Source: Escherichia coli (GTDB lineage: Bacteria; Pseudomonadota; Gammaproteobacteria; Enterobacterales; Enterobacteriaceae). Taken from it: a stretch of 64,000 bases of DNA. A program made the position numbers. Positions 1-3,000 of the stretch are shown here, piece after piece; positions within the stretch are counted from its first letter, which is position 1, and the number at the start of each line of letters is the position of its first letter. The stretch is taken from assembly GCF_003334385.1 (NCBI RefSeq), contig NZ_QOWN01000008.1. The stretch is one strand, 5' to 3'.

Positions 1-3000
1 GAAACGCGTGAGCGCGCCGCCACATTACAGTGGTTATTCTGGCAGGTAGGCGGACTGGGGCCGATGCTTGGGCAAAATCATCATTTTAATCACGCAGCCC
101 CCCAAACCATTCCTTACGCTATTGAACGTTATCAGGTTGAAACTCAGCGTCTTTACCATGTACTGAACAAGCGGCTGGAAAACTCGCCCTGGCTGGGAGG
201 CGAGAACTACAGCATTGCGGATATTGCCTGCTGGCCGTGGGTTAATGCCTGGACTCGCCAGCGAATTGACCTAGCAATGTATCCGGCAGTCAAGAACTGG
301 CATGAGCGGATCCGTTCGCGCCCTGCCACCGGGCAGGCACTGCTAAAAGCACAACTCGGTGATGAGCGTTCGGATAGTTAACAGAAACAGGTTCTCGTGT
401 ATTATTTCATCCTAAGTAAAACAACGGAGAACCTGCAATGGCACAACCTGCCGCTATTATTCGTATAAAGAACCTTCGTTTGCGTACGTTTATCGGAATT
501 AAGGAAGAAGAAATTAACAACCGTCAGGATATTGTTATCAATGTGACGATCCACTACCCCGCCGATAAAGCGCGCACTAGCGAAGATATCAACGATGCGC
601 TGAATTATCGCACCGTAACGAAAAACATTATTCAGCATGTAGAGAATAACCGTTTCTCTTTGCTGGAAAAATTAACTCAGGATGTGCTCGATATCGCACG
701 TGAACATCACTGGGTGACGTATGCTGAAGTGGAGATCGATAAACTGCACGCGCTGCGCTACGCCGATTCGGTATCCATGACCTTAAGCTGGCAGCGTTAA
801 TCGCCATATCGGGAGGCTGCATGAACATAGTGATCACCGGAGGGACAGGATTAATTGGTCGCCATTTGATTCCGCGTTTGCTGGAGCTGGGCCATCAAAT
901 TACGGTAGTGACGCGTAACCCGCAGAAAGCCAGTTCCGTTCTCGGCCCTCGGGTGACACTATGGCAAGGGCTTGCCGATCAAAGCAACCTCAACGGCGTT
1001 GATGCGGTAATCAACCTGGCCGGAGAACCGATTGCTGATAAACGCTGGACTCACGAGCAAAAAGAGCGTCTCTGCCAAAGCCGCTGGAATATCACGCAAA
1101 AACTGGTCGATTTGATTAATGCCAGCGACACGCCACCGTCGGTACTCATTTCCGGCTCGGCAACGGGCTATTATGGTGACTTAGGTGAAGTGGTGGTTAC
1201 CGAAGAGGAACCGCCGCATAACGAATTTACCCATAAACTCTGCGCTCGCTGGGAAGAAATTGCCTGCCGGGCGCAAAGTGACAAAACGCGAGTGTGCCTG
1301 CTGCGTACCGGTGTAGTGCTGGCACCGGATGGCGGTATTCTCGGTAAAATGCTGCCGCCGTTTCGTCTTGGCCTGGGCGGGCCGATTGGCTCTGGTCGGC
1401 AGTATCTGGCCTGGATTCATATTGATGATATGGTCAACGGTATTCTCTGGCTGCTGGATAACGAGCTGCGCGGGCCATTTAATATGGTTTCGCCCTACCC
1501 GGTACGCAATGAACAATTTGCCCATGCGCTCGGTCATGCGCTGCATCGCCCGGCCATTTTGCGCGTCCCCGCGACCGCCATTCGACTGTTAATGGGCGAA
1601 TCTTCAGTACTGGTATTAGGTGGACAACGCGCGCTGCCTAAACGGCTGGAAGAAGCGGGTTTTGCGTTTCGCTGGTACGATTTAGAAGAGGCGCTGGCGG
1701 ATGTCGTTCGCTGATGTGGTTTACAGCAAACATCCGCCAGTTAACTCCCGGTGTTACAGGATTAGTGGCTTTGCGCGATAAGATCGTCTGGTGAAAGTCG
1801 GGTCACCATCATAACTAACTCTCTGTCTAAACCTCTATCCAGCATCTCCTGAGCAATACGCAGGGCTTCTTCGTGTTTGCCCTGCATTGCGCCTTCTTCA
1901 CGTAATCTGTCAGCAATGGTCATCAGTTTCTCCTTTTCTTGTGGTGCGCGTTCCGCTATCTCACCAATAAATGCACGAAAACGCTGGGCATCCCCTGTTT
2001 GTAATACGTAATTAAACAGGGCTTTTAGCTGTCTGTCATTAGTGTTCCCTGTAACTAGCAGCGAAACAATTTGGTCGACTAATCCCAACAGATCGCGCTG
2101 ACGAATATGTTTCTGAATTAACTCCAACAGCGCCATTTTGCGGTGTTGCATAATCTCGTCATCCGGCACCACGGTAATATCCACCAACGGAAAAGCCGAT
2201 GAATATATTTTGCGGGCTATAGCAGGCTCGGCAAATTCATCAAGCCAGCAGAGTGAATAAGGATAAGGACTTCTGCAACCATGATAAAACAGCATCGGGA
2301 GCACCAATGGAAGCTCTTTATAGCCCGCATCAAGATGGTTTTGCATTGCCGCAATGGAATAACGCATCATGCGAAAAGCCATTAATTCTTCCGGCTTACT
2401 TTGGTGCTCTATCACTACATAAATATAACCCACTCCCTCCTGCGTTTTCACAGACCACAAGAGGTCGGAATAATATTGCCGCAGGTCTTCATCAATAAAA
2501 CTGTTTGGTTCCAGTTTAAGCGTCGTTAAATCACACAGTTTGCGCAGCGGCGCGGGAAGATGAATATCAATAAAATCCCGCGCGGTGTCTGGATGGCGTA
2601 AAAAAGATTTAAATACCGCATCATGCGGCGTGGAAGTTGTCGATATTGTCATGGCGTTCCGTCACCCCTCAAATTTAAGATGACGCGACAATAACCACGA
2701 TTAACACCCAATGCAGCAGGCAGTTTTTATCTTTGGACAGCGAATTCAGAAGTATTTTTAGCGGACTGTAACTTTTACATTTCAGCGGAAGCTGACTCGC
2801 AAATTCCCCATGAAAATACTCCGGCAGCGTTAGCCACCGGAGAGGAAATTATTTCAGCGATCCCTTAAGGAACCGTTGCAGACGAGGGCTTTGCGGGTTG
2901 CCAAATAACTGCTCCGGCGCGCCCTCTTCTTCTATTTTCCCCTGATGGAGGAAAATGACATGAGTAGAAACATGGCGAGCAAAGCCCATTTCGTGAGTCA

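Follow-up and report, generated by a model that had tools for sequence, protein, structure and literature searches.

rpnB of Escherichia coli: one reading frame that very likely encodes a DNA-cutting toxin and its own antitoxin

Introduction

What is a solitary gene for a nuclease of the Rpn family doing among housekeeping genes? This question is raised by rpnB (yfcI), which is located in a stretch of 64,000 nucleotides of Escherichia coli contig NZ_QOWN01000008.1 (assembly GCF_003334385.1), hereafter referred to as the window. An earlier note on this DNA had identified rpnB as a gene of the PD-(D/E)XK Rpn family that stands alone between yfcH and the his transport operon without a mobile-element flank. 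It had described Rpn proteins as transposase-derived nucleases, some of which had been proposed to be toxin-like or defence-related, and had suggested looking for a small antitoxin-like open reading frame in the 3' part of the gene. We conclude that the rpnB locus is very likely a chromosomal gene-within-gene toxin-antitoxin system that works by the mechanism set out below. This finding, including the internal antitoxin, is correct but already known, and it brings no new biology; a deletion scar allele and a variable spacer, both also described here, are minor additions that are consistent with the literature. The locus is nevertheless a gene within a gene of textbook quality, in which one reading frame yields a DNA-cutting toxin together with its own antidote, and it bears both on genome annotation and on the biology of phage defence.

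Results and Discussion

An internal open reading frame for the antitoxin RpnB_S

The 3' part of rpnB contains an in-frame internal open reading frame, rpnB_S, which starts with an ATG at Met244, is preceded by the Shine-Dalgarno sequence AAGGAG and encodes a product of 53 amino acids (Table 1). The small antitoxin-like reading frame envisaged in the earlier note is thus present. The stretch that includes the internal Shine-Dalgarno sequence, CAAGAAAAGGAGAAACTGATGAC, showed no variation among five divergent E. coli alleles and the E. marmotae sequence. Upon column-by-column inspection of an alignment of 100 homologues, Met244 was found in every sequence (100/100), and it aligns with M244 of RpnA, an internal start that has been proven experimentally. 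At the start of the full-length gene at position 2652, only a poorly spaced GAGGGG is found.

The expression and the activity of the internal product are documented by Zhong et al. 2023 PNAS (PMC10400941). A ribosome-profiling initiation signal was reported in rpnB, and a transcription start was placed inside each rpn gene. SPA-tagged RpnB_S and the full-length protein, RpnB_L, were both detected in vivo, RpnB_S by immunoblotting. RpnB_L inhibited growth more strongly in the absence of RpnB_S than did the wild-type gene, and the RpnB-dependent induction of the SOS reporter dinD-lacZ was blocked by RpnB_S but not by RpnA_S, a block that was lost with a stop codon placed at D29 of RpnB_S. Counted from Met244, D29 corresponds to D272 of the full-length protein, and the published small protein is therefore the open reading frame found here. 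Indeed, the gene in the window and the RpnB_L/RpnB_S pair described for E. coli K-12 (PMC10400941; PMC5350276) share the gene, the locus, the Met244 start and the 53-residue product, and we noticed no substantive difference between them. The architecture of RpnB and the neutralisation of the toxin have thus been established experimentally. With regard to the toxin-like role mentioned in the earlier note, the toxin-antitoxin nature of RpnB is borne out, but the word 'proposed' is outdated, since this nature is a published experimental fact (PMC10400941).

The predicted structure of RpnB_S points in the same direction. An AlphaFold model (predicted local distance difference test score of 81) has three helices, at residues 3-29, 34-41 and 45-49, of which the first is long. 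In a Foldseek search the sole confident match of this model in the PDB was entry 7TH0, 'E. coli RpnA-S' (probability 1.00, template-modelling scores of 0.69/0.78, root mean square deviation of 2.2 A, 43% identity), and RpnA_S has been described as a dimeric three-helix bundle on the basis of this very entry (PMC10400941). In a phmmer search with full-length RpnB, residues 244-295 matched 7TH0 (E=0.0026), and this match begins exactly at residue 244. It should be noted that a profile match to 7TH0 was also obtained but is inflated, as the underlying alignment includes RpnA_S; we therefore rely on the phmmer and Foldseek results. The Pfam family PF27070 (HTH_Rpn_C) is found as a precomputed annotation on homologues.

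Designer pentatricopeptide-repeat proteins ranked above RpnA_S in sequence searches of the PDB. These matches were rejected as artefacts, because each single match was non-significant (i-Evalues of at least 2.8) and the totals were sums made by HMMER over about ten identical repeats. A segment within helices 2-3 of RpnB_S (window positions 1762-1893) does resemble the helical hairpin of a pentatricopeptide repeat, a likeness that does not amount to homology.

A candidate sigma-70 promoter for rpnB_S was recognised by eye, some 90 nt ahead of the internal start codon. Its two hexamers, ATGACA and TTTAAT, separated by 17 nt, were invariant in six alleles, and the element may be the promoter from which the internal product is transcribed. 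Standard gene calling is blind to this second functional protein, and the RefSeq records examined list the long coding sequence only.

The nuclease domain of RpnB_L

The identity of the gene is secure. A region of 1701 bp was identical at every position to its counterpart on many E. coli chromosomes, whose records name the gene 'rpnB: recombination-promoting nuclease RpnB' and place it between yfcH and hisP. Residues 8-209 of the encoded protein matched Pfam PF04754 with E=2.8e-90, covering model positions 1-202 of 203, and the NCBIfam model TIGR01784 ('Rpn family recombination-promoting nuclease/putative transposase') scored 186.9 bits, well over its cut-off of 52.1; the family is also catalogued as COG5464. 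The two equivalog models NF007361 (titled RpnA) and NF007418 ('ISNCY family transposase') scored 467 and 459 bits, under their cut-off of 583, which is to be expected because rpnB is a different paralog. The rpnA, rpnC, rpnD and rpnE paralogs, which reside at other loci, share only 57-70% identity with the window rpnB in the N-terminal domain.

The residues D11, D63, E82, Q84, R94 and D165 of RpnA recur in RpnB as the same residues with the same numbers, and in the alignment of 100 homologues they were invariant or nearly so. Kingston et al. 2017 J Bacteriol (PMC5350276), who named the family, showed that the substitutions D11A, D63A, E82A and Q84K in RpnA abolish every phenotype, and that purified RpnA is a Mg-dependent endonuclease that cuts DNA largely or wholly without sequence specificity. 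The same study reported that overexpression of RpnB kills 98.7% of recA cells, that RpnB is among the fastest inducers of the SOS response, and that its overexpression increases RecA-independent recombination 19-fold. RpnB itself is probably a DNA endonuclease; of the two proteins, it is RpnA whose activity was measured in vitro, and for RpnB the published data are SOS induction and toxicity in vivo.

Variability of the S region

The region shared by RpnB_S and the C-terminal domain of RpnB_L is hypervariable. The lengths of 99 full-length homologues cluster at 296, 300, 304, 308, 312, 316 and 320 residues, and nearly all well-populated insertion columns of the alignment lie just after residue 254, 11 residues into RpnB_S, with units such as QEGK/QEGL. 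Among E. coli alleles a 4-aa indel and substitutions are found at residues 11-14 of RpnB_S. The 296-residue form in the window (EEGAMQGKH) differs from the 300-residue form (EEGRNDGLILGKR) by a 12-nt indel and by local substitutions. A second mosaic block, one form of which is [LM]EKGFDHEVILTL, varies among E. coli alleles independently of the 12-nt indel. The hot spot agrees with the published position of the Rpn repeat region, which was given as 8-20 residues past the initiating Met (PMC10400941).

Differences between alleles are concentrated in the same region. Relative to the window allele, the nonsynonymous differences per site (pN) amounted to 0.040-0.096 in the S region and to 0.004-0.019 in the N-terminal 243 codons. 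The corresponding ratios to synonymous differences (pN/pS) were 0.33-0.68 in the S region and 0.04-0.12 in the N-terminal part.

Table 1. Features of the rpnB locus and its surroundings (window positions)
Feature	Position	Strand	Basis or remark
rpnB (yfcI, b2305), full-length coding sequence, RpnB_L	1762..2652	-	296 aa + stop, ATG start
rpnB_S, in-frame internal open reading frame, Met244 to stop, 53 aa, cognate antitoxin	1762..1923	-	ATG 1923-1921
Shine-Dalgarno sequence AAGGAG, 6 nt before internal ATG	1930..1935	-	sequence
Candidate internal sigma-70 promoter for rpnB_S	2011..2039	-	by eye; ATGACA (2039-2034), 17 nt, TTTAAT (2016-2011)
Hypervariable residues G254-Q257, where four-amino-acid (12-nt) indels cluster	1882..1893	-	located in the first, long helix of RpnB_S; the window has the shorter form
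Transposase_31 / YhgA-like nuclease domain, residues 8-209	2026..2631	-	Pfam PF04754
Catalytic residues of RpnB		-	D11, D63 (2466-2464), E82 (2409-2407), Q84 (2403-2401), R94; PDDE motif 163-166
Upstream non-coding part, presumed RpnB_L promoter and 5' untranslated region	2653..2744	-	conserved among Escherichia alleles
Presence/absence segment, 1003 bp: rpnB, 20 bp downstream, 92 bp upstream	1742..2744		allele junctions
rpnB-internal segment kept as filler in the rpnB-minus allele	2179..2208		deletion scar
yfcH, neighbour of rpnB	821-1714	+	yfcG and folX also on this side
hisP, neighbour of rpnB	2849-3622	-	followed by hisM, hisQ, hisJ
Inverted repeat I7 over the yfcH stop codon	1694..1740	+	arms 1694-1704 and 1730-1740, 11/11 complementary
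hisP intrinsic-terminator-like hairpin	2819..2842	-	terminator scan: 10-bp stem, 7 GC pairs, T-run

Proposed mechanism and comparison with known systems

The mechanism that we consider very likely is as follows. [quoted passage not shown] RpnB_S (53 residues) would be made from the internal Shine-Dalgarno sequence and the ATG of Met244, probably via a separate transcript that begins within the gene and is both shorter and more abundant. This small protein, which has the same sequence as the three-helix domain at the C-terminus of RpnB_L, would be present in excess and would bind that domain via its long first helix, thereby holding the nuclease inactive. The mode of binding assumed here is extrapolated from RpnA and RpnC and is only presumed to apply to RpnB. 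The number of four-residue repeats in the first helix would decide which S protein matches which L protein, such that in-frame 12-nt changes would re-key the interaction; toxin and antitoxin would co-evolve because the antitoxin is the toxin's own C-terminal domain. Phage infection would probably free RpnB_L from RpnB_S, upon which DNA would be cut, and the likely use of the system would be phage defence. This role of RpnB against phages is one that we can only infer.

Several observations weigh against this interpretation or parts of it. Protection against phages has been demonstrated solely for the plasmid-borne paralog RpnP2 (PMC10400941). None of the models in PADLOC-DB v2 matches either rpnB product, this database being older than the Rpn systems or lacking them, and the immediate neighbours of rpnB include no defence genes: they are folate, epimerase and amino-acid-transport genes and do not form a defence island. 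rpnB is also dispensable, as it is deleted in 12% of the complete E. coli genomes and interrupted by insertion sequences in others, and deletion of rpnA-D left basal recombination unchanged (PMC5350276). Lastly, a consensus promoter scan missed the candidate promoter ATGACA-17-TTTAAT, because the scan accepts only -10 hexamers whose second position is A.

Among known systems, RpnA_L/RpnA_S (yhgA, PDB 7TH0) is the example studied in most depth by biochemistry and crystallography. RpnB has the same order of domains as RpnA, its catalytic residues and Met244 carry the same numbers, and the N-terminal domains share 70% identity. The RpnB_S model superposes on the crystal structure of RpnA_S. The two differ in their locus (feoC-bioH for rpnA), their S proteins do not cross-protect, and RpnB is reportedly the more toxic of the two; furthermore, nuclease activity and the L-S complex have been measured for RpnA but not for RpnB. 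The plasmid-encoded RpnP2_LS of E. coli ECOR13 belongs to the same family and has the same gene-within-gene arrangement. However, RpnP2 protects against T-even phages, as the sole member for which this was demonstrated, and rpnB was never found on a plasmid. As in classical type II toxin-antitoxin systems, a protein antitoxin would bind a protein toxin directly, and this antitoxin is helical, resembles a helix-turn-helix protein and would be in excess. Whereas the classical systems consist of two adjacent genes, the small Rpn protein is an in-frame internal product that is identical to the C-terminal domain of the toxin.

Presence, absence and deletion of rpnB

Among 5426 complete E. coli genomes, the segment that carries rpnB (Table 1) was present in 4756, always on the chromosome and as a single copy of the gene, and never on a plasmid. 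Exactly the other 670 genomes share a single alternative allele (locus L001, 1816-1900), in which 28 bp take the place of the segment. In these strains the non-coding part upstream of rpnB is missing along with the gene, as a comparison of the occupied and deleted alleles showed.

The origin of the short allele can be read from its filler. The 28 bp together with the adjoining hairpin arm, ATCCGCCAGCGGAAACGCTGATGAATAAAT, correspond to an internal segment of rpnB at 27 of 30 positions in the allele of locus L011 and at 25 of 30 in the window, a match score that was not reached by any of 2000 shuffled sequences. The left junction of the deletion is the distal arm of the yfcH hairpin, ACATCCGCCAG (1730-1740), which shows microhomology to rpnB positions 2177-2187, ATATCCACCA(A/G). 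Since the filler matches the interior of rpnB, the allele without rpnB is a deletion scar and not an empty target site. An exact 20-mer of the filler had no match in GTDB contigs representing one genome per species, which fits a scar specific to E. coli rather than an ancestral spacer. E. albertii, E. marmotae, E. whittamii and one further Escherichia species also have rpnB at this position, with 93-97% protein identity; within the genus the gene is therefore ancient, and it has been inherited vertically. In some E. coli strains rpnB has been interrupted independently by insertion sequences, namely IS1B in NZ_CP007594.1 and ISVsa5 in NZ_CP103623.1.

Alternative explanations

The names of the matching models, like older annotations such as 'putative transposase', could suggest that rpnB is a transposase, possibly a defective one, or the remnant of an insertion sequence that once transposed to its present site: Pfam lists the domain as Transposase_31 and a related NCBIfam model carries the title 'ISNCY family transposase'. 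The behaviour of rpnB as a discrete single-gene unit of presence and absence would agree with such an origin. We nevertheless regard it as hardly credible, because rpnB has neither terminal inverted repeats nor a target-site duplication, is confined to one copy at one locus and to the chromosome in all 4756 genomes that carry it, occupies the same position across Escherichia species, as expected for vertical inheritance, and is missing from other strains by virtue of a deletion scar. Moreover, autonomous PD-(D/E)XK transposases are not known, and PMC10400941 reports no evidence of autonomous transposition of rpn genes; according to that paper they come and go one at a time, with ends that vary and no transposon features. 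The description of Rpn proteins as transposase-derived in the earlier note consequently finds no support, either in PMC10400941 or at the rpnB locus. The other claims of the note hold: the reading frame of rpnB is exact and the family assignment agrees with the annotation and with the Pfam and NCBIfam matches, the neighbours are as named, and the claim that a mobile-element flank is lacking is in line with the absence of bracketing repeats and with the single-copy, exclusively chromosomal distribution. A second possibility would be that RpnB mainly promotes RecA-independent recombination, thereby aiding the uptake of horizontally transferred DNA, with the S form being a mere regulator; this is the proposal from which the name 'recombination-promoting nuclease' originally came. 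The 19-fold increase in recombinants upon RpnB overexpression is in favour of this possibility, but the effect was seen on overexpression only and was accompanied by the killing of 98.7% of the cells (PMC5350276). It would also be difficult to reconcile with the unaltered basal recombination of the rpnA-D deletion strain, and the S/L interface diversifies rapidly through repeat changes, which is a signature of conflict systems and not of a housekeeping recombination factor. A primary role in recombination thus appears quite improbable to us.

It is somewhat easier to imagine, although still rather unlikely, that rpnB is a toxin-antitoxin passenger, selfish or neutral, that confers no benefit on the host, persists through addiction-like stability and decays slowly. 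In addition to the 670 genomes with the deletion and the strains with an IS1 or ISVsa5 interruption, many truncated RpnB entries from Shigella and E. coli are consistent with such decay, as is the state of the K-12 paralogs, with rpnD being a pseudogene and RpnE lacking activity. Against this stands the observation that rpnB is intact at the same locus in at least five Escherichia species and that the nuclease domain is under strong purifying selection, with the above-mentioned low pN/pS ratios and invariant catalytic residues. In addition, the recurrent changes in the S region are in-frame 12-nt changes instead of frameshifts. The chromosomal toxin-antitoxin system with an internal antitoxin therefore remains our preferred reading of the locus.

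The hisP-yfcH spacer and other rpn loci

The spacer between the convergent genes hisP and yfcH, which contains rpnB in every Escherichia species sampled, was compared across the Enterobacteriaceae loci L013-L049. Salmonella enterica subsp. arizonae and diarizonae, Shimwellia and Pantoea have an empty spacer of only 40-57 bp. A gene for a GNAT acetyltransferase of about 170 residues occupies it in most Citrobacter and also in Enterobacter, Trabulsiella and Superficieibacter, and two genomes of the C. amalonaticus group have an additional rpn gene which adjoins hisP in the same orientation as rpnB. The spacer of T. odontotermitis and Yokenella regensburgei holds an unrelated two-gene phage-like module (phrog_5923 and phrog_2620), of which only the last 24 nt remain in T. 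guamensis.

We considered whether the Citrobacter gene adjoining hisP might be an orthologue of rpnB. This was rejected, as its N-terminal domain shares 67-68% identity with RpnB, which is less than the identity between RpnB and RpnA (70%), and the gene is thus a different paralog. Judged from this comparison, its presence at the spacer would most simply reflect an independent arrival. A homology of the hisP-proximal flanks of the E. coli and Citrobacter rpn loci, suspected from the shared sequence CTCGCAAA, was dropped because a blastn-short search at E<0.01 was negative. Likewise, high-scoring homologues from Salmonella (P0072, near mgtC) and C. freundii (P0040, adjoining yjiR/yjiS, which is the rpnD position) belong to other loci and are not RpnB orthologues.

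The other rpn paralogs of K-12 (MG1655) are each found singly amid housekeeping genes, in the arrangements panD-rpnC-panC, glpC-rpnE (with yfaU beyond), feoC-rpnA-bioH and mdtM-rpnD-yjiR. This placement agrees with the published gain and loss of rpn genes as single genes (PMC10400941). rpnD is annotated as a pseudogene in MG1655, and rpnE is followed by the small pseudogene ypaA (RpnE_Ss).

These comparisons invite the speculation that the spacer between the hisP and yfcH terminators repeatedly receives small conflict modules in the Enterobacteriaceae, and that a specific mechanism may let rpn cassettes enter at terminator hairpins. We raise this idea with much reserve, as we think it doubtful. 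If two rpn paralogs entered the spacer independently and without transposon ends, their capture might have involved the RecA-independent recombination of Rpn itself, and the deletion that left the scar might be the reverse reaction. In any case, the scar allele and the varied cargo of the spacer could help to study how rpn cassettes move without transposon ends.

Genomic context of rpnB in the window

Positions 1-45498 of the window are 99.91% identical to positions 2,420,888-2,466,384 of MG1655, where rpnB is b2305 and holds the same position between yfcH and hisP. The window strain is a close relative of K-12 (99.91% identity over 45.5 kb) that carries the short 296-residue rpnB allele.

rpnB lies downstream of the terminator-like hairpin of hisP and has the same orientation as hisP. 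yfcH and rpnB are convergent and end only 47 bp apart, counted between stop codons; the one inverted repeat found there spans the yfcH stop codon. A repeat search over positions 1650-2900 revealed no inverted or direct repeats that bracket rpnB, only short scattered matches. The promoter scan detected no minus-strand consensus promoter upstream of either rpnB start, except for a 9/12 match at 2451-2422, which was not used as it lies deep within the N-terminal domain. Antisense or out-of-frame open reading frames within rpnB, such as one of 81 aa on the plus strand (2253-2498), were without support.

At the far end of the region of K-12 similarity, argW, the gene for tRNA-Arg(CCU) at positions 45423-45497, is directly followed by the dsdXA, emrY, evgS and oxc region (45500-64000). 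The cryptic prophage CPS-53 (KpLE1), which is located at argW in MG1655, is absent from the window strain, which is otherwise 99.9% K-12-like.

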